Assembly: GCA_051294905.1 (NCBI GenBank)
Contig: CM119372.1
Location: 1,302,001-1,366,000 of the forward strand
DNA length: 64,000 nucleotides
DNA from: Botryllus schlosseri
Lineage: Eukaryota
Reading direction: 5' to 3'
In this document: positions 1,825-64,000 of the stretch, one piece after another
How the letters are laid out: each line of letters opens with the position of its first letter
How positions within the stretch are numbered: position 1 is the first letter of the stretch
Translations under genes and position numbers: made by a program
The notes under the pieces: model-generated
Database searches by the model: none
What the model was told of the DNA's origin: nothing
What the model saw: the letters and a program-made list of their open reading frames with translations, nothing else

Positions 1825-3463
1825 AAACGAGAATAGCAACTGGAAGTGTTTGGAACTTGTGTAAATTACGACGAAGCTACGACTGCCTTATTACCTATAC
1901 ACTGAAATCTTTGATTGTCTTTTGCAACACACGGTTAGTAGTGATTGAGACGCTGGTGTTGTACGTTATGAGATCTGAAATAATGTATTAAAATGGGAAT
2001 GTACATTTTCCATTATATTATCGGAGACACGCTCTAGTCGTTCGCTATAGGTTTGCGAGATGTTTGAAAGATTGCTTCTGTCAATGATTTTTCCGCTTCC
2101 AACTAGTGTGTGAGATATATATATATATATATAAATACATAGAAAGAGAGTTCATTAGGTACTAAGTTAGGGATACCATATTTTTATGTCTAAGAAGGAG
2201 GAAACTTTTTACATCTGACATTAACATACAATGCAACTGGAGAATTTTACGGAAATGGGAGATAGGATTGATCGAAAAAAGCCTGTAAACTGGTTTCCGC
2301 TTTACGTTGATCTGTCATTTATTCCAACTTCGCGTCAATTGTGTAGAAAGTCAGTTTTCACGCACCTTTGCTGTCGATGTTATCATTTTAGATATCTCTA
2401 TGTCATCACCTAACACCCACTGTAATAAAAAAGGATGAATTGCCAGAAAAGAGGATAATTGGGCGTCCTCCGAGGACATTTGGGTTTTCTCGAAAAAAGA
2501 CGACATATGGTATCCCTAATTAGGCACAAAAATATTCGCATAATAAACATACCTGGACAACAATACAGGCTAAGCGACGAAGGTTTATTGCCCAATCATA
2601 TTGGCACAACAGAACTCCATATGCATATTGGCATGATTGAATCACAGCAATGTGTTGGCTATTCAGGACCAGTTATGCAGAAGACGCAGGTCGCAACTGG
2701 AATAGTGGAAGTACATTATAAAGTCGATGAACCTCGGAAACCATGAAGTATCTCTTGGTCGGTATATGGTCATTTATAATCAAGTAAATATGTTGGCAGA
2801 GACAGTATTCCGTAACTGAGTTAGTAATACCACAGATGCCATTTCCTGGGTATTTCTTGTAAAGGTATCTCGTGTTGTTGGCGGCTTCGTATTGAACTAC
2901 GGGAAAACGTGGTGTCTATTACATAGTTCCTTGTAGAAAGGGAATTATAGTAAAATAATCTGAAAAAACATCATATACAACTTAGCTGAAATGCGAATTA
3001 CGAAAGAGGCGATTTCGTGGTTAGTTTTAAATGTGCAGATTTACTCACGGACATGCGTATTTCTGAAATGATTACATATCGATTCGATGATGTGTAAAGT
3101 AATTTTTTGTGTCATGTTGCGGTTGCTGTCAAAACGCTTCTTCATTTTATTCTCAGCAAATATGAATTTTAGCGCGCTGATGACGACATCTATCGGCTTG
3201 ACGGGTATGTTTTCCATTTGTATAAAATGTGCAGTGGGCATATAGGACTCGAAAAGATAAAAATTGAGTTTCAAAAGTTCGTTTATCGAGGGGAAATTAC
3301 TTCACTAATAGTGTTGCGTCACTAATTCATTGTGATTTAATGGACAAGGATGGAGTCACAATATACATTATAAAATTATGGGAGCGGCAAAATCGTATAC
3401 TAAAATGAGTTCGGTGAGAGTCTTTCAACAGGACACAGAACCGAGTAACTTTGTTTGTCTCAG

Positions 3464-6400: not shown

Positions 6401-7503
6401 GACGCACTACGAAGGACATTTTTGATAATTTGAGGATGTGAATGATCTTGATTCACAGGTGGGCACTGGTCGCCAGCAGTGCTCAAAATAGTAATCATTG
6501 CTACTCAAGTAGAAGCAGAAGTAGTAGTGATTCCCGAGTAGAACAGTAACTATTCTAGGATAAGGTTTACCTAAAAAGACGAAATCTGTCAATTAGAAGT
6601 GAGGGTAGTCTAAAATCATGCTGACTTGAGTAAGTACTTCTAACAATCCACTTGAATATTCCTGAAATAAACCCACTCACTGACCACCTCTGGGCATTAC
6701 GTATTTTGTGACATAAAACCAATATGTTCAGCCGATATCAATCATATTTCTTATCTCTGTTACAAATTAGCAAAATAGAAAATAGACGTTGACTACCTGA
6801 GGCGGTCAAAGCAGTCATAGTTGATACTGAAGTAGAAGTAGAATTGACGTTTTAATTTCTATTCAAGTACAAGTAGAAGTACAGCGTTTCCGAAGTAAGT
6901 GGAATAGTACGAAGTCGTGACGTATTGTTGTGTAAAAAACTATCGTATACGTGGAACCCATCCCCCTCTCTCTCTCTCTCTCTCTCTCTCCCTAACTCTA
7001 ACCCTATTCAAGTAGAATTAAAGTCGGAGATTTCTACACAAGTGCAAAGACAAGTAGTGTTTTCCAAGTACGTAAAAAGTATTCTAAGACCGGTTATGAC
7101 TAATAAACTGAAAACTGTTTAGTAGAAGTAGAAGTAATCTGATAAACACAACCATCTGAGGTTGTAGAGCAAGTACGCAAAGCCTACGTAAGTGCTCAGA
7201 AAAAAATAGAAGTTCTTCGTTACTGACCATAGCTATGCTGAATATTCATTATAGGTATATATAGTTGAATGTAGGTTGTTTTCATCTTTATCTTTATCAT
7301 GATTTGTCTTCAGAAGCGTTGAAGGAAATATTGAATCACAGTACGCACCGGACACACTGGACGAGCCTCGATATGTTAGTCCAATAGCCAACGTCTCCAA
7401 CGCAATGACAATGTCCTCTTTCGCTGGTATGAAAAGTACCGACGAGGAAAGATCACAGGACGAATGGTCTAATTCCGAGTACGCGGCAATCCGAGGAATC
7501 TGA
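3464..7503 (+). CDS. Receptor A: mucin-like single-pass type I membrane protein with C-terminal ITIM-like motif (5' exons not found)
   Basis: Frame-compatible GT-AG exons 3464-3607, 4851-5054 (S/T-rich), 6213-6348 (TM: YLPLLITNTVLLIILILVGVFNMVLLVKKR), 7314-7503 (tail ending ...SNSEYAAIRGI*). Confidence 0.8.
3621..4056. mobile_element. MITE-like element with (TTCTAG)n tracts; second copy at 31480-31958
   Basis: Inverted ends GACCTGTACAAACT / AGTTTGAACAGGTC; internal sequence aligns by eye with the 31480 copy. Confidence 0.6.
5213..5779. mobile_element. hAT-type MITE rich in GACTCGAGTC motifs
   Basis: TIR CAGGGTTGTAA...TTACAACCCTG; perfect 8-bp TSD CTACAAAT (5205-5212, 5780-5787). Confidence 0.9.
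6479..7230. repeat. Abundant TACTCAAGTAGAAGTAG-rich dispersed repeat, probably a non-autonomous hAT/Tol2-like family (other copies about 12850-13310, 18018-18233, 22454-22660, 33850-34420, 40320-40795)
   Basis: Copies start GTG(G/A/C/T)TCAAA and several end TACTGACCA(C/T); variable number of internal repeat units. Confidence 0.6.
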
Positions 7504-38100: not shown

Positions 38101-41100
38101 ACAATCACAGTTACAATAACATTACCTAACCTAACCCTAAACTAATCCTAACCTAACCCTAATCCTAACCTAACCCTAATCCTAACGTAACCCTAACCCA
38201 ACCCTAATCATAACCCTAATCATAACTCTAACCTCCTAATCACTCGATAATAATATAATTATGTTATATAATTCACATTAATAGTTGGTAATACAACTTT
38301 ACACAAAATTCTTTGAGGGCCGAATTCACCGGTTGAATTCGGTCCTCAGTAAATTCGGCCCCGTAAATATCCGTGTTATCTCCCGTGACTGTGTGATATA
38401 CGCATACCCTGACCTCCAAATCCCTCGATAATAATATAATTATGTAATTCATTCACATTTATAGTTGGTAATACATTTTTATACAAAATTCTCCGAGGGG
38501 CGAATTTACCGAGTAAATTCGGCCATCGGTAAATTCGGCCCCGTGAATATCCGCGCCATCTCCCACGATTACGCGATCTACGCATACCCTGACATCCAAA
38601 TCACTTAATAATAGTATAATTATGTAATAAATCATGTTAACGGTTGGTAATACATTTTAATACAATATTCTCGGAGGGCCGAATTTACCGAGGTCATGGC
38701 CGAATTCACTGGCCGAATTTACCGAGGGCCGAATTTACTGGGAACCTTTGTTATAACTGTTTATTGTTATTGTAGTAGTGTTGTTGTTGCTGGGTCCACC
38801 AAGTGACTGGTTCCGGTCAAGTAGAACGAACACTTGGTGAACACATGAATGCGTCTTCTTTCTTGTCCAAACTGGCTGCTGGGAACGTAAAATAAAGCTC
38901 TCTGAAAAAGATTGTTGAATCTCAGCACATCTACAATATCAGTAGGTCCTCCACACCAACCATCTGTATACGGAAAGAAGGCCTCATCTGGCAAATCAAA
39001 GGTACAATCACCTGAACAAGACTCCGCAAAATCGAAACTGCGATTCCATCACACCGAGAGTACGAATTCTCACCCGAAGTACGTCGTCGACAGTCGGTAT
39101 GTAATCGGGACCAGTCAGCCGTCGGATATGACTGAAGTAACTGAAACGAGTCATTGACACAGTTCGCCAACTGGAAAATTTTACCTTTTCCGAAATAGAT
39201 TAGAATCAGAATGATGGCTACATTAGAATAGAATTAGAATGACTAAATTCGCAAGAACCTGAAAAGTTCCAGTATTTTCTGTCTTCAGGACATATTTACT
39301 TGATAACAAGTCACTCAAGGTCAACTAGTATATACTTTATCTTCAGCAAAGTAACACGGCTAGAATATTCTAAGCTTTACCAAATTCGATAAGAATTAGA
39401 ATGACTGCATTCGTATAAACTTTGACCTTATATTCAATTCCTAATTGCAAAGCAACACAACAAAAATGAAGTTCAGTTCGTATCGAATCACAGGTCATTC
39501 TCGTAAGTTTGAGAATGGCAAATGTCCGCACACCAGCAAGCTTGGCTCGTCTCGCACTATACAGATCTCGTGTAGCATTTTCAGAAAATCCAGAAACTAG
39601 GTGAAATTTTAAAAAGTTACGAATTAGATTACAATTAGCCTATATTACCGGGAATTCGCTCTAGTTAGTCAAATTTTTCAACTAGGATTAGAACTAAAAC
39701 TGGAACTAGAATATGGTATGAGCGGATTGGTACACTCACTATAGAGCCGAATCATTGAGTTCGTATTCGAATCCACGCTTCGCGGCAGCCCTCACGCTTC
39801 TATCCCTCCATAGACAACGTAAGGAATACGCAAGTTCAGGAGTCAAAAATCCGTCTTCGTCACACGCGCACTCGCAGCACAGAACGGTTTGGGCGTAGAT
39901 CTGCAACAGACAAAGCCTTGTAGATTCGTATACCACAATACCGGAAATACTGTTCATATTGTCACAATGATCAAAGTATCGTAATTGATTCAATCACTAG
40001 CTGTTTTATGTTATCCCGTATTTCTGTCCATCCAGTGTGTCTAATTTCAAAGGGTATTCCAAGCCGTTTCGACAACATCCTATCTTTTCATTATATCGCA
40101 GTCTTGTGGCGTCTTGAAATGATGATACTTATAGTTGTCGGTGGTCGGATCGAGCTCAACCTGGAACCCATGGACGAAGAATTTCACGCTGCGTTCACAC
40201 ATACCCAGCATGTCGATCAGCGCGCTCAAATTTCGCCATATGGAATTTCCAAGTTTTTAAATTTTTTATCGTAGTCACCCTGTTAATTTGCCGTAAGGAT
40301 TTGTATATGGGTCATAAATGGGCCTCAAATCGTAACTACTTAAGTGTATGGTACACGCGGGCAAAACCTACTCTAGTACAAAAAAAAAACAGTATAATTA
40401 GCATTGTAAATTTCTACCCAAGTGCAAGTAGAAGTAGCGATTTCTAAGTAAAAAGTAAGTATTAGGATTGGTTTTGCCTGAAATACTGAAAACTGTCAAG
40501 TATAGAAGCAAAAGTAGTTTAAATCGCACCTACTCTAATCAGTAGTATAAGCATGCAAAAGTTACTTGAGTACACAAAATGTAGAAGTAAAACTCTTGAT
40601 TTCTACTTAAGTACACGTAGAAGTACTGATTTCAAGTAAAAAAGTATTCTATTACTAGTTTTGCTAAAAATACTGAAAAATGCCACGTAGAAGTGAAAGT
40701 AACCTACAATCCCAACTACTAGAGTAGGTATGCAAACATGCAAAAAGCAGTACTTGATTACTTCAAAAAAGTAGAAGTATTTCCTAACTGATCATCTCTG
40801 GATGTTTCTAGGACGTGAGGAGTCACATGTCGAACTTACTTTGTTCTTTAGACTTTGTAGATTTATTCGTAAAATCACCATTCCCTGGAGGACGAATTTC
40901 ATTGAGTTTAGGAGGTTGTCGAGAATCGCCGGCTGCAAAAGATCAAAAGAAAAAAACTCAATATAATTGCAGCATCGCAATAATCCATCGCGATTTTGCG
41001 TGCGAATCTATTACATGTTTTGAACAGTGTTTAAAATATGCCTTTTGAAAAACTCGACTCGACTCATTAGAATTAATACTCGATTCAGATTCGACTATTG

Positions 41101-46240: not shown

Positions 46241-48057
46241 CCCTAAGTCATGTAGAATTTTCGTAATAGGCCTACATAACATGATTCAAGTCAAGATGAT
46301 TGAGTCGCTATTTATTCTGAAGCGACTAACGAACATCGAGGTAATTATACCGTCAGTGGGGCATTATAGCCTATATTGCTCACATATGCGTAGAACTGAT
46401 AAACCACGTCGGTAAGCTAACTGAAACTGCCATCCAAATGGATGATATAATATGAAACCTCCGAAGAGATACACATTCCAGCTACACATAATTACGAAAC
46501 GATTTAAGCATGCACCAAATGTTGACGAGTAATATAAATGGATATTTATATCATACATACAAGAGGTGGGCCTACATAAATACACACTGCTTTAGATAGC
46601 TTACTACTAGGCAACGACAACGTATATTTCGGACTCAAATCGGGCAAAAGGACCGCTCAACTATAATGGACGATACAATATTAACACGAGTTTTTGACTC
46701 AATTCAGATTTCGTCATCAACGTTCGGGTTCGGGGTGTAACGTGGCTGGTAAGCGTAGATTCGATTAAAACCGTCGTCAACGCAAGTCGTCAACGCAATA
46801 ACGCAGTAACATGACAGAACCTTGGCCTGTACCAAATTATAGTTCCTTTCGGCGAATTGTCGACACATTTACCTGGACTTCATGGTCATATCAATATACT
46901 AACATTTATTGTGAGTCAATAGGTGATATACCAATTCATCCCGTGCATTTTGGCGCATTCAAGCTTTCTTTTTATACTCTGGTAACTTGGAATACAACTC
47001 GTTTACAAACTTTTCCTGGTGTTACATGTTTAGCAGCTGCTGATTCGTCATCTAAGATCAGTCTGATATATTTTATTTTGACAAGGGAAATAATAACTGA
47101 AAATTATCCTACGCCCAATTATAGCTGAACACCGAACATGGACGTAACAAAGAGACGATTAGCCCGGTAATTCTATATCCGCCTCGAATATCGCCTACCC
47201 TTGCAGGCTAATTTACCAGCCAATTATAATCTGTAGAGTTGGAAACACATGCCATATCAAGCTATTCCTTTTAATTCATACTCTAATATCATGAAAAGGA
47301 AATAAACGCGACATAGATCTTTTCCTGAACTGCAACATATACTAGAACTATAGACTCATCATAACGCTACAACTCGTATTAATCGATCATCTGTGTCGGT
47401 CGGAGCAATGTATTTTTTACATTTTCAGTCTTTCCATGGTAGGCCTATGCTACACCGCAAAACAATTAGGTTCCAAACCAGCTGTCATTTAGCTGCAGTT
47501 TTTGCCGTTTCAAGACTAATGATCACTTCACCAGCTCGGGCGATGGTGACAAGGAATGTTAATGTCACATAATTACATATGTCGACCAGAAATACACTTC
47601 GCAACAAGTTTCGCTTACGAAAATAGCGTGTCAGCATCGTGCGTGTGTCTTATATGAGCTTTGAGCTAGTAGGCTATCTTCATTAGGGCTTTTCAGAAAC
47701 AGCTTTTCTTCTAAATTTTAATGGCTACCCTATAAAATTTGTTACGTTATCTGAAACGCCGGACATCAAATTCAGCTCCGCACTTTGTTCAGTTCTCTGG
47801 AACTCATCAAATATTTGTCCCCCTACATTATTTTCTGGTATCGCCACTGCTTCCAGAATGGTCATTAAGACTAACCCGAAGAACGTTAAACTGCAAGCTT
47901 TCTCCGAAATCTAAGCTTTTGCCAAGTCACAAAAATGAACATGTACCATATTTCACATCTAATACATTACTGGGAGAATACCAACGCACAAAATGAAGTG
48001 CTTCCTTCAAAAACAGTGTTAAAAGAACAAATCCATTAAATCATGAGTAGTATTATA

Positions 48058-51000
48058 CACAGGGTTTATACGCGCCCCAATCACCGTTGAGTATTTGATC
48101 ACGTGACATCTGTTAGCCAATTAGAACGCAGAACGATGTGGGTGTGGTTCCAATACGAGAGAGGTTTTGGTTGTGTGAGAGATGGCATAGTTCCAGTCCA
48201 GTAACGCTGAGATATTTATTACGTCATTGAGTAAGTTGATAACCTATGATTGCGTATTGCAGCATGTTCATGATTACGTGTATAGTTCCAGTCCAGTAAC
48301 GCTGAGATATTTATTACGTCATGGCGTAAGTTGATTACCTTCATTATGATTGCGTATTGCACCATATTCATGATTACGTCACAAGCGTAGTTGATTACTT
48401 TAGTTATTACTAGAGCGGCTTTGCTTAGTTCCAGTAATGCTGAGATATGATTACGTCATGATTGCGTCTAGTTCCAGTCCAATAACACTGAGAAATATTT
48501 ACGTTAATATGATTGTGTAGTTGAAGCATGTTCATGATTACGTCATATGCGTAGTTGATTACTTTAGTAACGCTGAGATGCGTAAGTTGATTACCTTCGT
48601 TATGATTGCGTATTGCACCATATTCATGATTACGTCACAAGCGTAGTTGATTACTTTAGTTATTACTAGAGCGGCTTTGCTTAGTTTCAGTAATGCTGAG
48701 ATATGATTACGTCATGATTGCGTCTAGTTCCAGTCCAATAACACTGAGAAATATTTACGTTACCGCCCGCCCGCTAATTTATCGCGTCATCACCACTCGC
48801 TTGTAAACATTTTCATGATTTTAATGATTAATAAAAATTATTTAAATAAATATTATTACTTTGGTTCTAACTTTGGAAACGAAAAAATCAAATAGATATT
48901 CACAAAGCAACAATATTATTAAAAAAAAATATGTTCACCGTTACAAGCCACAATGATTTCAATGAATATTGGAAAAATATTATTATTAATTATTATTCCT
49001 AAGTTAGAATGAAATATTTTAAAAGATTCAAATCATGTTTTGGTTCTTATAACAGCGTAAGCTAATTATTTTCATTAACAACACAAGATAATTGATAAAT
49101 TAACTAAATAATTAATAGGATATTCAGAAAACAACAATATTATTAAAATAATCAGTGGTAGTGAAACAATAACAACACATGAAAATGGCTAATTTCACGC
49201 AAAATCATAAGATATTCATAATACCAGGCAATTTTTGATATTATTACTTTAGTTTGTGTCTCATTTAGTGTAAAATGATAGCATTTTGTAGTGCATACGG
49301 TAAGGTACTGCGACACTATCCATTAACCAAGAATGTATTGAGTTAATTCTCTGAAGAGCACAGCTGTTGTCACAATGAAATGTTGACTATCGAATGAAGT
49401 TTATTATTGTGTATTGATAGGATACACCTTCATGAGGTGGCAAGGTGTTTGAATTTTGTGTAGCGCTAATTCTAATTAAACTTGGAGCTTGTTGTACAAA
49501 AGATGTTCACCGTTATAAGCTACAATGATTTCAATGAATAATGAAAGAAATATTATTAATCATTATTATTCCAAAGTTATAGAACCAAAGTAATAATACT
49601 TGATAAATGGAATATTTTAAACATATTTAAATCATGTTTGGTGCATATAACAACGTAAGCTGATTATTTTCATTAACATCACGAGATAATTGCTAATTTC
49701 ACAATGATAAGAAACTCACTACAGATCAACGCCTAGAGATCAAAATCCACGAAGCTCGCAGTGTATCTGAAAAGCGTGCGTAACTGAAACAGGTTGAACA
49801 GAACTAGATTAGAATTCGAGCGTGCTTTGCAAACAATGTAAAAGAATAGAAGCGAAGTTAGCTTGATTCCTGGGGACATCTATGTCTTTACCAAGAATGT
49901 TCATCCAACGATAAGGTAAAATTAATTACGCGCGCTTATCATGGATTTTTTGTGCTGTGGTTCTTTCAAGGATAAGATTTTTGATATGCGACTCGCGCAT
50001 AAAATAGCTCTGCCCACCCCTGTACTATAGTAAAGTATTAGATGTGTAGTTAAATGTATATTTTGCCAGATTTTTTGTTTTATGACTAGCAAAAATTTGT
50101 GGTTCAGCGAAGGTTTGAAGACTAATGTAAGTGCTTTGTGGATCAGTAAAGGTTGTGAATATGTGAACCACACAAAAAATAGCGTTGAGCACAATGATTT
50201 GTCATTGATTGATGATCAGGTTCAATTCGAGAGTTCAATTGCTAATTTTGAACCCTATAGGACCACTGCCACCATTCGCGTATTGCTATTACGCTATAAA
50301 TGCATTAATATATATTCAGGGAAGAAAATGGCGAAACGCACATGAAATCATTAAAGTGCTACAATCGTGAATCGCAGTTTGCCCGCCTCTGCTATAACTA
50401 GTAGTCTCAAGGGAATGATAACTGCAGTGAAGATGTTTCAGCTTTACTTAATAGTTCTATGTCAATTCCGCTCAGTAATTCGAATGTGACAAGCCACAGC
50501 TCATTCCGTTTAGAGATAAATTTGCAATAAAACGGACATTTCGATCACGTTATTTTTATGCTTGGGAGATATTACCGCTATTTGGAGCAATACTTTCGCT
50601 ATATGATCATATCAGGGTTGTTCAACGACGTAAACTTTAAATATTATGAATATCATATACTTTATGCTAAATTAATTGACGGTTTATTCAACTCTCATTA
50701 ATTTAGTATTCTAGAACCACTGAAGTCTCATGAAATAACAAAATACCGTGCTTTGCAAACAATGTAAACAGAATAGAAGCGAAGTTAGCTTGGTTCTCTA
50801 GGGACATCTATGCCTTACTCAGGAAAGCTCATCCGTCTTTAAAAGCTGCTTGATGGGAAGTGAATACCCTAGACAAGTCCGAACCTGTCTATATTGCAGC
50901 ATATTAGAGATAGCTTGTGCAATAGTCCTAAATACAACAAAATGCGGAGAGTTGATATCGCAATAGGTACGATCATCACTTCTTGTACTTTACTAGAAAT

Positions 51001-54000
51001 TTACTGCTGATAAATGAGTAATTGACTTTAGTCGATATTCTCGTACTACGAAACTGAAGAATGAATAGACGCGTTTTCGTACTATAGAATGATATCGTTT
51101 CTACAAAACGTTTTTTGATATCAAAATTACTTTTTTACATGAATGGTCACGTATCTTAATATTCAAATAACCCAACACAGAACTAGTATTACAAGAATAT
51201 CATAGTTCTTGTACCAAAGTTGTACGTGCACAATATATGTTTAAGGTAAGTCCTACACATTCATGATTTCGTCCGAGTTTGTATTTTAGTAAATATTATA
51301 CCGACATCGCATCAGCGTAAACATTCAATTACGAATTTGGGAGAAAGTAGGCTACACTCAATTTCGTAAGATAGATATATGAATCTTATAAAGTAGATAG
51401 AAAAGGAAAACTATTAACATAAGGTAAGCGCGAAGTAGCCTACGTAATTTTCGATTTCAAACAAATACCACAAACTGTGTTAGTTGTACTTCTTCAGAGT
51501 ACTCAATTAAGTTTTAAGCTATATGCAACAAATATAAAGGAAAACTATTAACATAAGGTAAGCGCGAAGTACGTAAATTTCGATGTCATACAAATATCAC
51601 AAACTGTGATAGTTGTACTTCTTCAGAGTACTCAATTAGGTTTTTAACTGTATGCAACAAATACTCTCCAGTGCTCATGATATTGCCCTGCTTCAACTCC
51701 ATGCTAGTTACAGTATTAATCACTGCGTTAACCGAATTCCAAACATAGAAATGTTATGTCGCCGCGAAATCATCGTCGAGGCTACTCAAGGGTTAAATTA
51801 CACTCAAAAGCTAATCAAGTAGCACGCAATAGCTTAACTAGTAGAATAGTCACCTATATGATCTTCCTTCACTATTATGCAACTAATGCAATCGCAACTA
51901 CTAGATGTTTGCACAGTGCTCTATATAGCTATAATTCAATTTTGAATGATAAAACGCATATTACCGCCACAGCACCGCTATTGAATATTGGTGATTTATT
52001 CTCATAATATTGAAAATTTGCTTGATATTGTGAATTATACTGTGTCGGCAACGCGTAGAGCTCCCTTGAGATACTGGCACGCTTTCTCGATATTTACTAA
52101 TCGTTCAGAACAACGCATAGACCTCCCTTGAGATCCTCACACACTTTCTCGATATCAGAATCCCTTTTTTGATTTGTTATGTAAAAGCATCATCAGTTTC
52201 GCATACATGAGCTCATATGATTCCAAATAAACGAAAATTATTTTTTATTAATCATTGAAATCATGTAGATTAAAAACAGTGATCGTCTTTTGTATAAACT
52301 AATTCATCGACAAAACAAGATAATCGATAATTTAACTAAAAAATCAATAAGATATTCACACGAAACTATCGTCAGTTCTCCAAGAGTAAATATCGTGTTC
52401 TACAAGTGTTAAGTTATTGTATTATGTAGCTAGTAATTGGTGCACGTAATCTCGGGATCGAACCAACGTGTGTTAACTTGCGTTATTATGTACCTAGTAA
52501 TTGGTGCGAGTAATGCCGCAACTGCTGTTGCTCAATGCATTTACCATGTTCGTACCAAGCATCTTAATAAGGATAGACAGCCCCAAGCAAATAATGTAAG
52601 TATGTATGTATGAATGATGGGTCTTATGATGCTTAACGATAGGAGCTGGTCTTCTATTCTATATTCCGAAATAATCAAGTTGTGGTTTACCAACACCTCG
52701 CCTCATAGAAACTTTAGTAGAATCACTTATAACTCCTCACGTTCACTCAAGTAAATCTAATTTGATACTCGAGTACTGAACCTTAATTTTCCAGCAGTGT
52801 GATAGACGCCGTCAAATGGTACTCAACATTGCATAATTCTGCTCGAATACAAGTAAAAGTACAGATTTCAAAGTAAGTAAGTAAGTAAGTAGGTAAGTAA
52901 GTGAGCAACTGGTTATGTTTGTAGACTATATCTCCACTTCTACCGTTCAGAGATGTTGAGCAGAGAAGTACATGTATTTCTTCAAAGTAGTCAAGTAGGT
53001 TTTTGCCTATATGCACCAACTACTCAAGTGTTTATTATATAGGCCTGTTTCGAATTCAAGACCGTTTCAGTATTAAACAAAAATGAACCTTGAATACTAA
53101 CATTTTATAATGTGACATTTTATATGCATAAACGAAGAAACGTCACTTTTACAGTGGTTCGGTATGATTTCTATATTATTCCACTCGCGTTATTGGACTG
53201 CGATGTGACGCTGAGCTATATCTCGATGCTTGGGCTTCCGCATTAATTTTTGTCGATTTATTCTGCCTTATGTAGATTTAACATAAGGAAGGTTATTTAA
53301 CTCATAAGATTTGAAATACGTATTTGCTCGAGTTAAAGCCATAACGCTTGGAGTAAAATTTTACGTGGTTTTCGTTAATATCCAACTGGGCTAATTTCGA
53401 AATGTAAATTGAAAAACTCAAATATCGCATAGTAGGACTTCGCAAATTTTCGATGTATTTTTGCTATTTTTTCATATTGATAAGTCATTCGGGACGGTGA
53501 AATGCATTATAGGAAATAGATGAAACTGGTACAATTCATCAAGACCCCTTAAAAAAGTACATTACATTTCAACATTTTATTAGCAGGTAGTCGAAATACC
53601 ACAAACTGTGCTAACCTTCGGAGTTGTTAAGTAAAGAAGTACTCGTACTTCTTCGGAGTACCCAAGTAGGTTTTTCGCCTACATGCACCAAATACTCTCA
53701 AGTCCTTATGATATTGGAGTGCTTCAACTTAATGATAGTTATAGTATTGAGCAGAAATATACCTGGAGTACTAACGTTTTATTTACTCGGAAATGACTAC
53801 TTCTATCTTATTTTAAAGGATTCCTCGCTCGACGCGAAATTTTATTAGGTTTTGAATAATATCCAACATTTAGGTTCACTTTGAAGGCTACTTCGTAAAA
53901 CTCAAATATTGCACAGTGAGAGTTCGCAAATTCTCGATGTATTTTTTGGTATTTTTATTGCGGTAAGTCATTCTGCAGCGCGAAAATGCATCGTAGGATA

Positions 54001-56007
54001 TAGATGAAACTGATACCGCTCACCAAGACCACTGGACCACTGAAAAAAGTACATTTCAACATTTTAGTAGCAGTAAATTCCTAGTAAAGTACAAGAAGTG
54101 ATGATTTCCGAGTGAGTTAAAAAGTAAGTATTGAAGGTATAGTTTGGTTGAAAACCCAAAACTCTGAAATAGAAGTAGATGCAGTGTAAAAAGTTAATCA
54201 CTTGATTAAGTATAGCGCAAGCAGACCAAACCTATACTTGAGTACTCTAAAATGTACAAGTACTTCGCTATGGACTCCCTCCATGTCAAAAGTGACTAGG
54301 TTTTAGACTACTTTATCGGTACTTGACAGTTTCAGTTTTAGATAAAATTTGGAATAAAAACTAGCTCATTCACCCACTTGGAAATCTCTTCTTTAATCTG
54401 TACTTGAGCGTAGCAAGTAAATCTCATATATTAATAATTCTACACGTACACTTGACCATATTTTATGACTTACAAAATTACTTTTCACTATATTTGAAGT
54501 CAAGTCTGTCAAATAGCACTATATGTTACGATGAGCTTATATTCGTTCTGTTTGATCATCTTGACTAACAATATTCACTCGGTGAGCAATTCAGTGATAA
54601 CCTTGGGACTTGGAACAGTGTTATATGACATCATAGCGATACGAGGTTACGACAGTTTATAATTAGCTACCTTACGACACCAAATTTCGTTAGTTCATCT
54701 CCACCTTCAAATATCGTGTTATACAAATATTGTGTATACGGAACAAATACATATATGGCTATGTTGTTGCAATCTTCAAAAAAGTACCTCCCTCAGTAAG
54801 CAATTTCTCGTAGGCTATGCATACAAATGAGGACTGTTACATCAACGAGTGGTAACTTGTTGTATTATGTAGCTAGTAATTAGTGCAAGTAAGTCCGCAA
54901 CTACTGTTCAGGACCTTTTCTGCGTTTTTGCCAAGCATCCTCGTAAGGACAGACAGTCCCAATCAGCTAATGCAAGTGTGTATGTATGTATGAGGGGTCT
55001 TATGCAGGTTGACGAATGAAGTTGATCGTCTATTCTATTCCGAAATAATCAAGTTAGTGGTTTTTAACAGGACCTCACCTCATAGAAACTTCAGTAGAAT
55101 AACTTATAACTCCTCACGTTTACTCAAGTAAATCTAATTTGATAATCAAGTACTGAATCTTAATTTTCAAACGACTTCAAATTTAACTCTTACTTATGAG
55201 ATTAAATATAATAACTTTTCACGTTGCAGTGTATTTTACAGCATGAGCCAAGTGATTTCATAATTAATACAAGATAATTAAATGAATTTCTAGAGTATTA
55301 TAAGATATTCGTGTCATACTCCTTCGTATATCATAAAAGAATACCTACTGCAGTCGATTTGTAATTATTTGCGCTGTGTTTGATTAACTCAATCATGTTG
55401 CAGTGTTTTTTAATAACGAAACACTTTTACAGCATAAACCAAATAATTTCATAATAAACACAAGCTAATTGAATGAATTTACTGAAATGTAGTATGCCGC
55501 GCTGATAAGATTAATTATAATAAACTTATCGTGCTACAGTGATTTTTCAATAACGAAACTCTTTTACAGCACAACCTAAGAAATTTCATAATAAGCATAA
55601 AATACCCGGTGTCGTTGATTTGGTACTTATTTGCGGTCGATCTTATTTATATCCAATTGAGTCGTAGTTTGGTGATTGAGCCCATAAGGAATTTTCACTT
55701 CATCATGATCCGTAAGTACTAATTGATGGTACATCCTCTTTTCAGCTTGAAGATGTGAACTATAAAATGTTGTATGCCGCGCTGATGAGATTAATTATAA
55801 CATACTTTTCATGTTACAGTGATTTTTCAATAACTAAACTCATTTACAGCATAAGCAGAGTAATTTCATAAGAAACATAAAATACCTGCTGTCGATGATG
55901 TGCACTAATTTGCGGCGTGTTCAATTAACTCATGCGGCTCTGAAATATAGTAAGCAGGGCGATGCGTATTCGTTGAGTTGAATAAACATAAAAAATATTT
56001 CCGCGCC
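48058..56007 (+). repeat. Left arm of the giant inverted repeat
   Basis: Position x pairs with 112058-x; mirrored ORF pairs (49922/62136, 50082/61976, 51756/60302, 52783/59275, 53624/58434). Confidence 0.98.
48188..48762 (+). repeat. Subterminal modular repeat array rich in TTACGTCA (mirror at 63296-63870)
   Basis: 183-bp direct repeat 48324-48506 / 48580-48762 plus shorter AGTTCCAGTCCA(G/A)TAAC(G/A)CTGAGA modules. Confidence 0.9.
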
Positions 56008-56049
56008 CTCCTAAACCTAATTCGTCCTAACCCTACAACCTAATGCTGA

Positions 56050-59000
56050 GGCGCGGAAATATTTTTTTATGTTTATTCAACTCAACGAATACGCATCGCC
56101 CTGCTTACTATATTTCAGAGCCGCATGAGTTAATTGAACACGCCGCAAATTAGTGCACATCATCGACAGCAGGTATTTTATGTTTCTTATGAAATTACTC
56201 TGCTTATGCTGTAAATGAGTTTAGTTATTGAAAAATCACTGTAACATGAAAAGTATGTTATAATTAATCTCATCAGCGCGGCATACAACATTTTATAGTT
56301 CACATCTTCAAGCTGAAAAGAGGATGTACCATCAATTAGTACTTACGGATCATGATGAAGTGAAAATTCCTTATGGGCTCAATCACCAAACTACGACTCA
56401 ATTGGATATAAATAAGATCGACCGCAAATAAGTACCAAATCAACGACACCGGGTATTTTATGCTTATTATGAAATTTCTTAGGTTGTGCTGTAAAAGAGT
56501 TTCGTTATTGAAAAATCACTGTAGCACGATAAGTTTATTATAATTAATCTTATCAGCGCGGCATACTACATTTCAGTAAATTCATTCAATTAGCTTGTGT
56601 TTATTATGAAATTATTTGGTTTATGCTGTAAAAGTGTTTCGTTATTAAAAAACACTGCAACATGATTGAGTTAATCAAACACAGCGCAAATAATTACAAA
56701 TCGACTGCAGTAGGTATTCTTTTATGATATACGAAGGAGTATGACACGAATATCTTATAATACTCTAGAAATTCATTTAATTATCTTGTATTAATTATGA
56801 AATCACTTGGCTCATGCTGTAAAATACACTGCAACGTGAAAAGTTATTATATTTAATCTCATAAGTAAGAGTTAAATTTGAAGTCGTTTGAAAATTAAGA
56901 TTCAGTATTTGATTATCAAATTAGATTTACTTGAGTAAACGTGAGGAGTTATAAGTTATTCTACTGAAGTTTCTATGAGGTGAGGTCCTGTTAAAAACCA
57001 CTAACTTGATTATTTCGGAATAGAATAGACGATCAACTTCATTCGTCAACCTGCATAAGACCCCTCATACATACATACACACTTGCATTAGCTGATTGGG
57101 ACTGTCTGTCCTTACGAGGATGCTTGGCAAAAACGCGGAAAAGGTCCTGAACAGTAGTTGCGGACTTACTTGCACTAATTACTAGCTACATAATACAACA
57201 AGTTACCACTCGTTGATGTAACAGTCCTCATTTGTATGCATAGCCTACGAGAAATTGCTTACTGAGGGAGGTACTTTTTTGAAGATTGCAACAACATAGC
57301 CATATATGTATTTGTTCCGTATACACAATATTTGTATAACACGATATTTGAAGGTGGAGATGAACTAACGAAATTTGGTGTCGTAAGGTAGCTAATTATA
57401 AACTGTCGTAACCTCGTATCGCTATGATGTCATATAACACTGTTCCAAGTCCCAAGGTCATCACTGAATTGCTCACCGAGTGAATATTGTTAGTCAAGAT
57501 GATCAAACAGAACGAATATAAGCTCATCGTAACATATAGTGCTATTTGACAGACTTGACTTCAAATATAGTGAAAAGTAATTTTGTAAGTCATAAAATAT
57601 GGTCAAGTGTACGTGTAGAATTATTAATATATGAGATTTACTTGCTACGCTCAAGTACAGATTAAAGAAGAGATTTCCAAGTGGGTGAATGAGCTAGTTT
57701 TTATTCCAAATTTTATCTAAAACTGAAACTGTCAAGTACCGATAAAGTAGTCTAAAACCTAGTCACTTTTGACATGGAGGGAGTCCATAGCGAAGTACTT
57801 GTACATTTTAGAGTACTCAAGTATAGGTTTGGTCTGCTTGCGCTATACTTAATCAAGTGATTAACTTTTTACACTGCATCTACTTCTATTTCAGAGTTTT
57901 GGGTTTTCAACCAAACTATACCTTCAATACTTACTTTTTAACTCACTCGGAAATCATCACTTCTTGTACTTTACTAGGAATTTACTGCTACTAAAATGTT
58001 GAAATGTACTTTTTTCAGTGGTCCAGTGGTCTTGGTGAGCGGTATCAGTTTCATCTATATCCTACGATGCATTTTCGCGCTGCAGAATGACTTACCGCAA
58101 TAAAAATACCAAAAAATACATCGAGAATTTGCGAACTCTCACTGTGCAATATTTGAGTTTTACGAAGTAGCCTTCAAAGTGAACCTAAATGTTGGATATT
58201 ATTCAAAACCTAATAAAATTTCGCGTCGAGCGAGGAATCCTTTAAAATAAGATAGAAGTAGTCATTTCCGAGTAAATAAAACGTTAGTACTCCAGGTATA
58301 TTTCTGCTCAATACTATAACTATCATTAAGTTGAAGCACTCCAATATCATAAGGACTTGAGAGTATTTGGTGCATGTAGGCGAAAAACCTACTTGGGTAC
58401 TCCGAAGAAGTACGAGTACTTCTTTACTTAACAACTCCGAAGGTTAGCACAGTTTGTGGTATTTCGACTACCTGCTAATAAAATGTTGAAATGTAATGTA
58501 CTTTTTTAAGGGGTCTTGATGAATTGTACCAGTTTCATCTATTTCCTATAATGCATTTCACCGTCCCGAATGACTTATCAATATGAAAAAATAGCAAAAA
58601 TACATCGAAAATTTGCGAAGTCCTACTATGCGATATTTGAGTTTTTCAATTTACATTTCGAAATTAGCCCAGTTGGATATTAACGAAAACCACGTAAAAT
58701 TTTACTCCAAGCGTTATGGCTTTAACTCGAGCAAATACGTATTTCAAATCTTATGAGTTAAATAACCTTCCTTATGTTAAATCTACATAAGGCAGAATAA
58801 ATCGACAAAAATTAATGCGGAAGCCCAAGCATCGAGATATAGCTCAGCGTCACATCGCAGTCCAATAACGCGAGTGGAATAATATAGAAATCATACCGAA
58901 CCACTGTAAAAGTGACGTTTCTTCGTTTATGCATATAAAATGTCACATTATAAAATGTTAGTATTCAAGGTTCATTTTTGTTTAATACTGAAACGGTCTT

Positions 59001-62000
59001 GAATTCGAAACAGGCCTATATAATAAACACTTGAGTAGTTGGTGCATATAGGCAAAAACCTACTTGACTACTTTGAAGAAATACATGTACTTCTCTGCTC
59101 AACATCTCTGAACGGTAGAAGTGGAGATATAGTCTACAAACATAACCAGTTGCTCACTTACTTACCTACTTACTTACTTACTTACTTTGAAATCTGTACT
59201 TTTACTTGTATTCGAGCAGAATTATGCAATGTTGAGTACCATTTGACGGCGTCTATCACACTGCTGGAAAATTAAGGTTCAGTACTCGAGTATCAAATTA
59301 GATTTACTTGAGTGAACGTGAGGAGTTATAAGTGATTCTACTAAAGTTTCTATGAGGCGAGGTGTTGGTAAACCACAACTTGATTATTTCGGAATATAGA
59401 ATAGAAGACCAGCTCCTATCGTTAAGCATCATAAGACCCATCATTCATACATACATACTTACATTATTTGCTTGGGGCTGTCTATCCTTATTAAGATGCT
59501 TGGTACGAACATGGTAAATGCATTGAGCAACAGCAGTTGCGGCATTACTCGCACCAATTACTAGGTACATAATAACGCAAGTTAACACACGTTGGTTCGA
59601 TCCCGAGATTACGTGCACCAATTACTAGCTACATAATACAATAACTTAACACTTGTAGAACACGATATTTACTCTTGGAGAACTGACGATAGTTTCGTGT
59701 GAATATCTTATTGATTTTTTAGTTAAATTATCGATTATCTTGTTTTGTCGATGAATTAGTTTATACAAAAGACGATCACTGTTTTTAATCTACATGATTT
59801 CAATGATTAATAAAAAATAATTTTCGTTTATTTGGAATCATATGAGCTCATGTATGCGAAACTGATGATGCTTTTACATAACAAATCAAAAAAGGGATTC
59901 TGATATCGAGAAAGTGTGTGAGGATCTCAAGGGAGGTCTATGCGTTGTTCTGAACGATTAGTAAATATCGAGAAAGCGTGCCAGTATCTCAAGGGAGCTC
60001 TACGCGTTGCCGACACAGTATAATTCACAATATCAAGCAAATTTTCAATATTATGAGAATAAATCACCAATATTCAATAGCGGTGCTGTGGCGGTAATAT
60101 GCGTTTTATCATTCAAAATTGAATTATAGCTATATAGAGCACTGTGCAAACATCTAGTAGTTGCGATTGCATTAGTTGCATAATAGTGAAGGAAGATCAT
60201 ATAGGTGACTATTCTACTAGTTAAGCTATTGCGTGCTACTTGATTAGCTTTTGAGTGTAATTTAACCCTTGAGTAGCCTCGACGATGATTTCGCGGCGAC
60301 ATAACATTTCTATGTTTGGAATTCGGTTAACGCAGTGATTAATACTGTAACTAGCATGGAGTTGAAGCAGGGCAATATCATGAGCACTGGAGAGTATTTG
60401 TTGCATACAGTTAAAAACCTAATTGAGTACTCTGAAGAAGTACAACTATCACAGTTTGTGATATTTGTATGACATCGAAATTTACGTACTTCGCGCTTAC
60501 CTTATGTTAATAGTTTTCCTTTATATTTGTTGCATATAGCTTAAAACTTAATTGAGTACTCTGAAGAAGTACAACTAACACAGTTTGTGGTATTTGTTTG
60601 AAATCGAAAATTACGTAGGCTACTTCGCGCTTACCTTATGTTAATAGTTTTCCTTTTCTATCTACTTTATAAGATTCATATATCTATCTTACGAAATTGA
60701 GTGTAGCCTACTTTCTCCCAAATTCGTAATTGAATGTTTACGCTGATGCGATGTCGGTATAATATTTTCTAAAATACAAACTCGGACGAAATCATGAATG
60801 TGTAGGACTTACCTTAAACATATATTGTGCACGTACAACTTTGGTACAAGAACTATGATATTCTTGTAATACTAGTTCTGTGTTGGGTTATTTGAATATT
60901 AAGATACGTGACCATTCATGTAAAAAAGTAATTTTGATATCAAAAAACGTTTTGTAGAAACGATATCATTCTATAGTACGAAAACGCGTCTATTCATTCT
61001 TCAGTTTCGTAGTACGAGAATATCGACTAAAGTCAATTACTCATTTATCAGCAGTAAATTTCTAGTAAAGTACAAGAAGTGATGATCGTACCTATTGCGA
61101 TATCAACTCTCCGCATTTTGTTGTATTTAGGACTATTGCACAAGCTATCTCTAATATGCTGCAATATAGACAGGTTCGGACTTGTCTAGGGTATTCACTT
61201 CCCATCAAGCAGCTTTTAAAGACGGATGAGCTTTCCTGAGTAAGGCATAGATGTCCCTAGAGAACCAAGCTAACTTCGCTTCTATTCTGTTTACATTGTT
61301 TGCAAAGCACGGTATTTTGTTATTTCATGAGACTTCAGTGGTTCTAGAATACTAAATTAATGAGAGTTGAATAAACCGTCAATTAATTTAGCATAAAGTA
61401 TATGATATTCATAATATTTAAAGTTTACGTCGTTGAACAACCCTGATATGATCATATAGCGAAAGTATTGCTCCAAATAGCGGTAATATCTCCCAAGCAT
61501 AAAAATAACGTGATCGAAATGTCCGTTTTATTGCAAATTTATCTCTAAACGGAATGAGCTGTGGCTTGTCACATTCGAATTACTGAGCGGAATTGACATA
61601 GAACTATTAAGTAAAGCTGAAACATCTTCACTGCAGTTATCATTCCCTTGAGACTACTAGTTATAGCAGAGGCGGGCAAACTGCGATTCACGATTGTAGC
61701 ACTTTAATGATTTCATGTGCGTTTCGCCATTTTCTTCCCTGAATATATATTAATGCATTTATAGCGTAATAGCAATACGCGAATGGTGGCAGTGGTCCTA
61801 TAGGGTTCAAAATTAGCAATTGAACTCTCGAATTGAACCTGATCATCAATCAATGACAAATCATTGTGCTCAACGCTATTTTTTGTGTGGTTCACATATT
61901 CACAACCTTTACTGATCCACAAAGCACTTACATTAGTCTTCAAACCTTCGCTGAACCACAAATTTTTGCTAGTCATAAAACAAAAAATCTGGCAAAATAT

Positions 62001-64000
62001 ACATTTAACTACACATCTAATACTTTACTATAGTACAGGGGTGGGCAGAGCTATTTTATGCGCGAGTCGCATATCAAAAATCTTATCCTTGAAAGAACCA
62101 CAGCACAAAAAATCCATGATAAGCGCGCGTAATTAATTTTACCTTATCGTTGGATGAACATTCTTGGTAAAGACATAGATGTCCCCAGGAATCAAGCTAA
62201 CTTCGCTTCTATTCTTTTACATTGTTTGCAAAGCACGCTCGAATTCTAATCTAGTTCTGTTCAACCTGTTTCAGTTACGCACGCTTTTCAGATACACTGC
62301 GAGCTTCGTGGATTTTGATCTCTAGGCGTTGATCTGTAGTGAGTTTCTTATCATTGTGAAATTAGCAATTATCTCGTGATGTTAATGAAAATAATCAGCT
62401 TACGTTGTTATATGCACCAAACATGATTTAAATATGTTTAAAATATTCCATTTATCAAGTATTATTACTTTGGTTCTATAACTTTGGAATAATAATGATT
62501 AATAATATTTCTTTCATTATTCATTGAAATCATTGTAGCTTATAACGGTGAACATCTTTTGTACAACAAGCTCCAAGTTTAATTAGAATTAGCGCTACAC
62601 AAAATTCAAACACCTTGCCACCTCATGAAGGTGTATCCTATCAATACACAATAATAAACTTCATTCGATAGTCAACATTTCATTGTGACAACAGCTGTGC
62701 TCTTCAGAGAATTAACTCAATACATTCTTGGTTAATGGATAGTGTCGCAGTACCTTACCGTATGCACTACAAAATGCTATCATTTTACACTAAATGAGAC
62801 ACAAACTAAAGTAATAATATCAAAAATTGCCTGGTATTATGAATATCTTATGATTTTGCGTGAAATTAGCCATTTTCATGTGTTGTTATTGTTTCACTAC
62901 CACTGATTATTTTAATAATATTGTTGTTTTCTGAATATCCTATTAATTATTTAGTTAATTTATCAATTATCTTGTGTTGTTAATGAAAATAATTAGCTTA
63001 CGCTGTTATAAGAACCAAAACATGATTTGAATCTTTTAAAATATTTCATTCTAACTTAGGAATAATAATTAATAATAATATTTTTCCAATATTCATTGAA
63101 ATCATTGTGGCTTGTAACGGTGAACATATTTTTTTTTAATAATATTGTTGCTTTGTGAATATCTATTTGATTTTTTCGTTTCCAAAGTTAGAACCAAAGT
63201 AATAATATTTATTTAAATAATTTTTATTAATCATTAAAATCATGAAAATGTTTACAAGCGAGTGGTGATGACGCGATAAATTAGCGGGCGGGCGGTAACG
63301 TAAATATTTCTCAGTGTTATTGGACTGGAACTAGACGCAATCATGACGTAATCATATCTCAGCATTACTGAAACTAAGCAAAGCCGCTCTAGTAATAACT
63401 AAAGTAATCAACTACGCTTGTGACGTAATCATGAATATGGTGCAATACGCAATCATAACGAAGGTAATCAACTTACGCATCTCAGCGTTACTAAAGTAAT
63501 CAACTACGCATATGACGTAATCATGAACATGCTTCAACTACACAATCATATTAACGTAAATATTTCTCAGTGTTATTGGACTGGAACTAGACGCAATCAT
63601 GACGTAATCATATCTCAGCATTACTGGAACTAAGCAAAGCCGCTCTAGTAATAACTAAAGTAATCAACTACGCTTGTGACGTAATCATGAATATGGTGCA
63701 ATACGCAATCATAATGAAGGTAATCAACTTACGCCATGACGTAATAAATATCTCAGCGTTACTGGACTGGAACTATACACGTAATCATGAACATGCTGCA
63801 ATACGCAATCATAGGTTATCAACTTACTCAATGACGTAATAAATATCTCAGCGTTACTGGACTGGAACTATGCCATCTCTCACACAACCAAAACCTCTCT
63901 CGTATTGGAACCACACCCACATCGTTCTGCGTTCTAATTGGCTAACAGATGTCACGTGATCAAATACTCAACGGTGATTGGGGCGCGTATAAACCCTGTG
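56050..64000 (-). repeat. Right arm of the giant inverted repeat
   Basis: Reverse complement of 48058-56007; only 4 substitutions and one 1-nt indel noticed by eye. Confidence 0.98.

Follow-up and report, generated by a model that had tools for sequence, protein, structure and literature searches.

The stretch of DNA analysed here, referred to below as the window, comprises 64,000 nucleotides of the genome of Botryllus schlosseri (G000:C2:1302001-1366000, contig CM119372.1) in an assembly of 495.5 Mb and 219 contigs. Its right-hand part is occupied by a palindromic element of 15,967 bp, which spans positions 48046-64012 and has its right end 12 bases beyond the window. Two mirror-image arms of 7.96 kb each enclose a central loop of 42 nt, and the whole is bordered by a duplicated hexanucleotide of the target site (Table 1). 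A first-pass annotation, made from the letters of this stretch, had proposed a 16-kb unit composed of inverted repeat with a Polinton/Maverick-type terminus and had placed the end of the symmetry at about position 64012. The bases beyond the window agreed with this prediction exactly, as ACTACT ends at 64012 and is followed by ATCATG.

Table 1 Features of the palindromic element and its family. Positions refer to the window unless a contig is given
Feature	Position	Strand	Remarks
Left copy of the target-site duplication, ATCATG	48040-48045	.	
Terminal (AGT)2 end motif, AGTAGT	48046-48051	+	Published Maverick end motif (PMC8097293)
Left arm	48046-56007	+	Non-coding, apparent mosaic of repeats
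Subterminal array	48219-48714	+	Seven TTACGTCA (CRE-like) octamers in one orientation
Central loop	56008-56049	+	Asymmetric, 42 nt; flanked by a 14-bp stem, AATATTTCCGCGCC/GGCGCGGAAATATT
Right arm	56050-64000	-	Mirror image of the left arm; runs on to 64012 outside the window
Mirror TTACGTCA array	63344-63839	-	
Mirror end motif, ACTACT	64007-64012		Outside the window
Right copy of the duplication, ATCATG	64013-64018		Just past the window end
GAGTATTTGATCACGTGAC block and TTACGTCA array	Terminal 50-700 nt		Marks of the family
Elements with ends unlike at nt 9	C5:2585515/2600742, C15:244607/259838, C15:22387151/22419455, C16:10712355/10727328, C2:17023736/17047277		Five elements at different loci

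At the left end, the sequence ATCATG is followed by AGTAGTATTATACACAGGG from position 48046. The CCAAT boxes, the motif TCACGTGA and the repeat array that the annotation had noted there were all present as described, with CCAAT words at about 48078, 48117 and 48149, TCACGTGA at 48099-48106 and the repeat array spanning about 48187 to 48760. The right terminus, located beyond the window, reads ...CCCTGTGTATAATACTACT and then ATCATG. Nucleotides 7-45 of the left arm vary between the lineages of the element and are succeeded by a conserved block, GAGTATTTGATCACGTGACATCTGTTA. The octamer TTACGTCA was matched 15 times in the window against an expectation of 3.15, and 14 of these matches belong to the two subterminal arrays; 7-10 octamers per end were present in every member of the family.

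A repeat search returned the inverted arms as 48058-55995 and 56063-64000, each 7,938 nt long, 67 nt apart, at a rounded identity of '100%' and reaching the last base of the window. Exact comparison of the two arms outside the loop revealed four substitutions (arm positions 3245, 6554, 6876 and 7105) and one insertion or deletion of a single nucleotide (7944). Four CCTAA words occur in the loop; read on the opposite strand they give TTAGG, similar to the TTAGGG of the host telomeres. The loop has the appearance of a degenerate telomere tract. The four words fall within 34 nt (56010-56043), compared with 89 such words on both strands of the entire window, and the loop is kept in all lineages. 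An interstitial telomere-like CCCTAA/CCTAA array with 14 CCTAA words in 115 nt was also observed at window positions 38125-38239, 10 kb to the left of the element.

The description of the unit as gene-less held as well. Only two open reading frames (ORFs) of at least 80 aa were detected in the 8-kb arm, a search of Rfam with positions 47500-56200 gave no match at E values up to 0.1, and Tandem Repeats Finder reported two small arrays and nothing else. No remnants of Maverick genes were found in the arms, since tblastn with 239 ORF pieces from Maverick loci yielded arm-to-arm matches alone. The protein-primed family B polymerase, rve-type integrase, ATPase, protease and capsid proteins that define a coding Maverick are thus lacking in the element, and no transposase gene was found in the eight copies of the family that were examined. 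Lacking coding capacity, the element depends on functions supplied in trans. Parts of the arms are very abundant genome-wide (1326 first-look candidates; word depth in run X1 exceeding the flank by a factor of up to about 2,800), which gives the arms the look of a patchwork of other repeats. In RNA run X23, of which about 6% was read, 26 reads matched the element and 92% of them ran into unlike sequence; no RNA run was among those listed as containing it. In runs X5 and X12 the flank was not covered. Contigs of three runs from different samples joined position 55997 back to 54304 via CTC, so that the inner arm is arranged differently in other copies or individuals.

A family of recently mobile palindromes

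The 16-kb gene-less mirror-image element is real and has recently been mobile. A 27-nt terminus, searched with up to three mismatches, matched the genome 20 times in forward and 20 times in reverse orientation, while the reversed control gave 0 and 0 matches. A twin of equal length is located at C15:7712557-7728523 between other flanks and with the duplication CATCCA. This twin resides in a repeat, and in four of five uninterrupted paralogues of that repeat CATCCA occurs once, with flank matches that overlap by exactly 6 bp; the fifth paralogue agrees by eye. The single CATCCA in the uninterrupted paralogues proves the boundaries of the twin and its 6-bp duplication. The repeat hosting the twin (L004:1250-1500, L036-L040) is itself very abundant, with 2182 first-look candidates at 93-95% identity.

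Plus and minus termini less than 20 kb apart formed at least 27 pairs with a mean length of 16,053 bp and a standard deviation of 1,826 bp, and 24 of the 27 fell within 14.4-18.1 kb; at least eight copies of 17.83-17.99 kb form a subfamily. These pairs were counted from the 27-nt terminus and two 13-nt searches, and palindromy was checked in eight of them, that of the window included. All eight were palindromic. Perfect 6-bp duplications, all different, flanked seven of these eight members (ATCATG, CATCCA, GGCCTT, CCAGTG, CTTGCC, GTAAGG and TAATAT), the exception being the copy on C6 with the flanks TTCATG/TTCGTT. The sequence AGTAGT opened all eight, with three AGT units at the terminus in some lineages and two in others. 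It is the whole two-armed 16-kb unit that inserts, with precise AGTAGT...ACTACT ends and a 6-bp duplication, and it has done so recently. In five elements at different loci (Table 1) the two ends were unlike at terminal nucleotide 9 (ATTATAC versus ATAATAC).

Palindromes of this size invite the suspicion of an assembly artefact, for instance a chimeric long read that folds back or a wrong join, and the family does trouble assemblers: three of the eight copies carry exactly 100 N in mid-element with the inner part doubled on either side. The copy in the window, however, is embedded in a 40.6-Mb contig, its flanks are unique and carry a matching duplication, and no N was present in the window or in loci L001-L004. 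Together with the second locus and its proven empty site and with the at least 27 paired copies in the genome, this makes an artefact extremely improbable. In addition, a contig of run X1 was found to end exactly at 48046, the first base of the repeat. 'Multi-centre' elements of 23.5-28 kb (C16, C4 and C2b), each with three apparent centres, were considered as snap-back or end-joined dimers and rejected, as exactly 100 N stand at each middle junction (L012:4906-5005, L021:2654-2753 and L024:2096-2195). The simplest reading is that overlapping contig ends of one element were joined by a scaffold gap. Such joins, with their doubled inner parts, inflate the elements to 23.5-28 kb and could pass for larger elements. 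These three and two other pairs above 20 kb (C8 and C11) were left out of the conclusions.

Origin and evolution of the arms

All seven relatives examined proved palindromic about a centre with identical stem and loop, which together with the window copy makes eight elements from at least four lineages. Their arms diverged from those of the window by 4-5% in the best-conserved part and by up to about 20% elsewhere, in addition to large rearrangements. The identity of the loop in all these diverged lineages indicates that the palindrome arose once and was inherited. It has a single, old origin and is copied as a whole unit.

The distance between the arms of one element was 0-0.28% (16 pairs), compared with 1.0-5.1% between elements and 0.07% between the window copy and its twin. 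When diverged elements were compared, 22-95 differences were mirrored on both arms and 0-5 were confined to a single arm. Comparison of the window copy with its twin over the inner 1.4 kb showed no mirrored difference, one one-arm difference and two shared left/right asymmetries. Over the full arm length, the asymmetries common to both copies were the substitutions at 6554 and 7105 together with the indel (7944); the differences at 3245 and 6876 are private to the left arm of the window copy. The left/right differences shared by the twins imply that both arms were copied as they are and not regenerated from one, and a rebuilding of the arms from one arm at each transposition was thereby ruled out.

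It follows that the time scale on which the arms are homogenised lies between 0.07% and 1% divergence. Their likeness would be kept by a process slower than the transposition cycle, for which we favour the repair of a hairpin formed by the displaced or exposed single strand of the palindrome; gene conversion from arm to arm in the chromosome would leave an identical pattern. Since nearly all substitutions between lineages are mirrored and very recent copies inherit unmirrored differences, the family bounds the rate of arm homogenisation and offers a clean natural data set on the evolution of giant palindromes.

Relation to the Mavericks of the same genome

Vertebrate Mavericks were mapped by the signature 5'-(AGT)2//(ACT)2-3' in combination with perfect 6-bp duplications, with (AG)3//(CT)3 as an alternative end motif (PMC8097293). 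The same article reports sizes of 16,862 ± 1,678 bp, a narrow range taken as a sign of constraint, and terminal inverted repeats (TIRs) of 46-1,447 bp, and ascribes the terminal repeat to jumping-back priming (PMC8097293). A 6-bp duplication and long TIRs are described as typical of Polintons (PMC3014272). A jumping-back mechanism has been reported for the 3'-GTAGTA end of adenovirus, as has template switching of the phi29 polymerase, which gives rise to subgenomic molecules (PMC4974454).

Autonomous Mavericks are present in the genome of B. schlosseri, and one of them is inserted in a member of the palindromic family. This member, C15b, measures 32.3 kb and was considered to be an autonomous Maverick that contains a palindrome, a possibility that was discarded because a second Maverick copy on C4 (about 16.4 kb, duplication TACGTA) shares the gene core alone and the junctions show nesting. 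C15b itself is an ordinary palindromic element of 15.7 kb, one arm of which carries a 16.6-kb autonomous Maverick (AGTAGTTAGATAAATG...CATTTATCTAACTACT, duplication TGTAGT; L014:2393 to L015:8965, G000:C15:22389393-22405965). The other arm of C15b represents the empty site of the nested Maverick with a single TGTAGT. A family terminus at C12:24533211-24533223, about 22 kb from a polymerase match at C12:24507370-24511359, may belong to a second nested or adjacent pair.

The ORFs of the nested Maverick all lie on one strand. Their products include a polymerase, an rve integrase and a double-jelly-roll-like protein, all three of which are also encoded by the C4 copy, as well as a weakly recognisable AAA-like ATPase. 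The polymerase comprises 1336 aa with the family-B motifs DxxxLY and YSDTDS. It had no sequence match in Pfam or PDB; its nearest language-model clusters pointed to PF03175 (score 0.97), which is a lead. When the genome was searched for PF03175, no match was obtained, but the control was silent too, which makes this result uninformative. The integrase was assigned to rve (PF00665) at an E value of 4e-8. For the capsid-like protein, the double-jelly-roll domain is present in 14-30% of the members of the nearest clusters, again a lead. A search with the polymerase, in which 35 of 364 candidates were scored, returned 36 rows, of which 22 had 92-100% identity, 4 had 62-65% and 10 had 38-39%. The genome thus harbours no fewer than three lineages of Maverick polymerase (100, 62 and 39% identity), many with intact reading frames.

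The annotation had assumed that the terminus of the palindrome is shared with autonomous Polintons, and this was correct for the outermost bases. AGTAGT started all six autonomous Mavericks examined, which represent three polymerase lineages; two of the six had 6-bp duplications and measured 16.4-16.6 kb. The left ends of two copies from each of the two further lineages were set where the homology between copies stops. Further in, the next 20-700 nt are unlike. Over the first 30 nt, ungapped, family and Mavericks were identical at 10-20 of 30 positions. Within each Maverick lineage AGTAGT is fixed, but copies that reach 92-94% identity in their interior still disagree over the 7-25 nt that follow it. 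The bases just inside the hexamer are variable in the Mavericks and the palindromic family alike.

The palindromic element combines the (AGT)2//(ACT)2 ends, the 6-bp duplication, the inverted ends and the size of a Maverick, all of which the annotation had recognised, with none of the coding features, and can be filed only as a non-autonomous associate of Mavericks. With moderate confidence, we favour the reading that the family consists of non-autonomous giant foldback elements for which the autonomous Mavericks of this genome supply the machinery, on which the palindromic element probably hitch-hikes. The rve-type integrase of the Mavericks would join the ends of the family to the target, and the Maverick polymerase would use the terminal reiteration (AGT)2-3 as its origin, with protein priming and jumping back. 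If the termini are such origins, new copies would derive from a linear form, and cut-and-paste would not be involved.

Several observations weigh against this reading. The terminal hexamer alone is common to the family and the Mavericks. Neither at the nucleotide nor at the protein level (blastn, tblastn) did the arms resemble the two autonomous elements that were examined over their full length, and the TTACGTCA array was absent from the autonomous Maverick loci examined (L028-L030). Among the polymerase matches listed, no autonomous element with the longer terminus of the family was found, and none of the 40 termini adjoins a listed polymerase match, the nested case excepted. The match in size (mean of 16.05 kb in the palindromic copies, 16.4-16.6 kb in the local Mavericks), which accords with the Polinton-like length proposed in the annotation, is suggestive, although simple descent from a single 16-kb ancestor could also account for it. 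The family was not seen as free linear DNA, as RNA or as DNA of virions, and exact-match scans with a 26-nt terminus and a conserved 27-nt subterminal block gave 0 matches in viral contigs and 0 in metagenome contigs.

Arrays of a short subterminal motif are, moreover, typical of transposase-binding sites in cut-and-paste transposons. The family could accordingly represent an ordinary foldback-type cut-and-paste transposon of another superfamily, with a transposase of its own that binds the subterminal array and with a likeness to Mavericks restricted to the tips. The very long inverted arms with their TTACGTCA octamers at both ends in every lineage, the great abundance of arm parts and the lack of any sequence in common with Mavericks beyond 6 nt would all suit such a transposon. 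Its transposase gene, however, was missing from each of the eight copies, and their length stays Maverick-sized, whereas non-autonomous cut-and-paste elements usually shrink. The exact (AGT)2-3 motif with a 6-bp duplication, found in the local autonomous Mavericks (motif in six of six) and published as the Maverick signature (PMC8097293), also argues against it, and we regard this explanation as possible but unlikely.

Rather improbable in our view is a true satellite as proposed in the annotation, comparable to a defective interfering genome, which the protein-primed polymerase of the helper would replicate from both ends, helper capsids would take up on account of its genome length and the helper integrase would insert. 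Terminal AGT units numbering two or three among lineages are what slippage in jumping-back priming would give, the gene-less family retains a length of 16.05 ± 1.83 kb next to helpers of 16.4-16.6 kb, a capsid-like protein is encoded by the helper, and the arms resemble stuffer built of other repeats. The family would then be the integrated form of a satellite of a Maverick virus, consisting of non-coding stuffer DNA and two polymerase origins, with both the palindrome and the 16-kb length being adaptive, a proposition that we likewise consider doubtful. The length would fit the capsid of the helper; by folding back on itself, every displaced single strand would regain a double-stranded origin, and this hairpin would also allow mismatch repair to keep the arms alike; the telomere-like loop might be the relic of a broken end healed by telomerase that folded back when the first palindrome formed. 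Against the satellite stand the lack of any direct evidence of an episome or of packaging in viral and metagenome contigs and in RNA and DNA reads, a sequence that is not derived from the present helpers, and a palindrome that is ancient and inherited instead of a fresh snap-back product. If true, the satellite would be the first gene-less one known for the Maverick virus group in animals and would provide natural evidence for linear protein-primed replication of Mavericks and for packaging by size. The preferred reading remains that of a giant foldback mobilised by Mavericks.

Comparison with known systems

Snap-back or hairpin derivatives of protein-primed replicons are known from the incomplete particles of adenovirus and from the hairpin plasmid of Kluyveromyces. 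Like these snap-back and copy-back defective genomes, the palindromic element would be a linear DNA with two identical, origin-bearing ends, in which one end region is mirrored and which depends on a helper. Defective genomes, however, consist of helper sequence and arise anew, whereas the palindromic family contains none of the helper's sequence, goes back to one old origin, maintains stable arm differences and is chromosomal. No doubled helper end was recognised, as blastn and tblastn remained blank against the two autonomous elements examined in full, and the turn-round point did not differ between copies, one loop and stem being present in eight of eight elements from at least four lineages. 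With arms unlike those two Mavericks, a single loop throughout and asymmetries shared by the twins, the description as a snap-back defective viral genome is not supported, and the interpretation offered in the first-pass annotation is, as a whole, partly supported.

The transpovirons of giant viruses are small linear DNAs with long inverted ends and few genes that ride on the replication and the particles of a virus. They differ from the palindromic family in their hosts and helpers, in possessing a few genes and in not being palindromic throughout.

Foldback (FB) transposons of Drosophila and other animals consist almost entirely of inverted arms, which evolve together, and most copies are non-coding. 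They generate a 9-bp target duplication and are mobilised by an FB or MULE-type transposase. The palindromic family resembles them in its long inverted arms, internal short repeats and small centre. It differs in the 6-bp duplication (seven of eight copies), the Maverick-type ends, the much longer arms and the uniform length of about 16 kb. No FB-type transposase was found in the copies examined; the genome was not searched for FB transposases.

The closest correspondence was with the Mavericks/Polintons, which are thought to be protein-primed viruses with a retrovirus-like integrase, direct evidence in animals being scarce. The palindromic family resembles them in its end motif, 6-bp duplication, inverted ends and a length of about 16-17 kb (Barreat and Katzourakis 2021; PMC8097293), and it coexists with many intact autonomous copies in one genome. 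A search of article listings revealed no work on a non-autonomous Polinton with palindromic or foldback architecture. In the family, the inverted repeat fills the whole element with 2 x 7.96 kb, in contrast to the published TIRs of 46-1,447 bp (PMC8097293). The family also differs from the Mavericks in being gene-less, in possessing a TTACGTCA array of its own and in a similarity restricted to the hexamer. Without genes, and with nothing retained of its presumed helper but end motif, duplication and genome length, such an element isolates the cis requirements of the Maverick life cycle. Our comparison points to six terminal bases as the part held in common with the presumed helper and to length as a trait possibly under selection.

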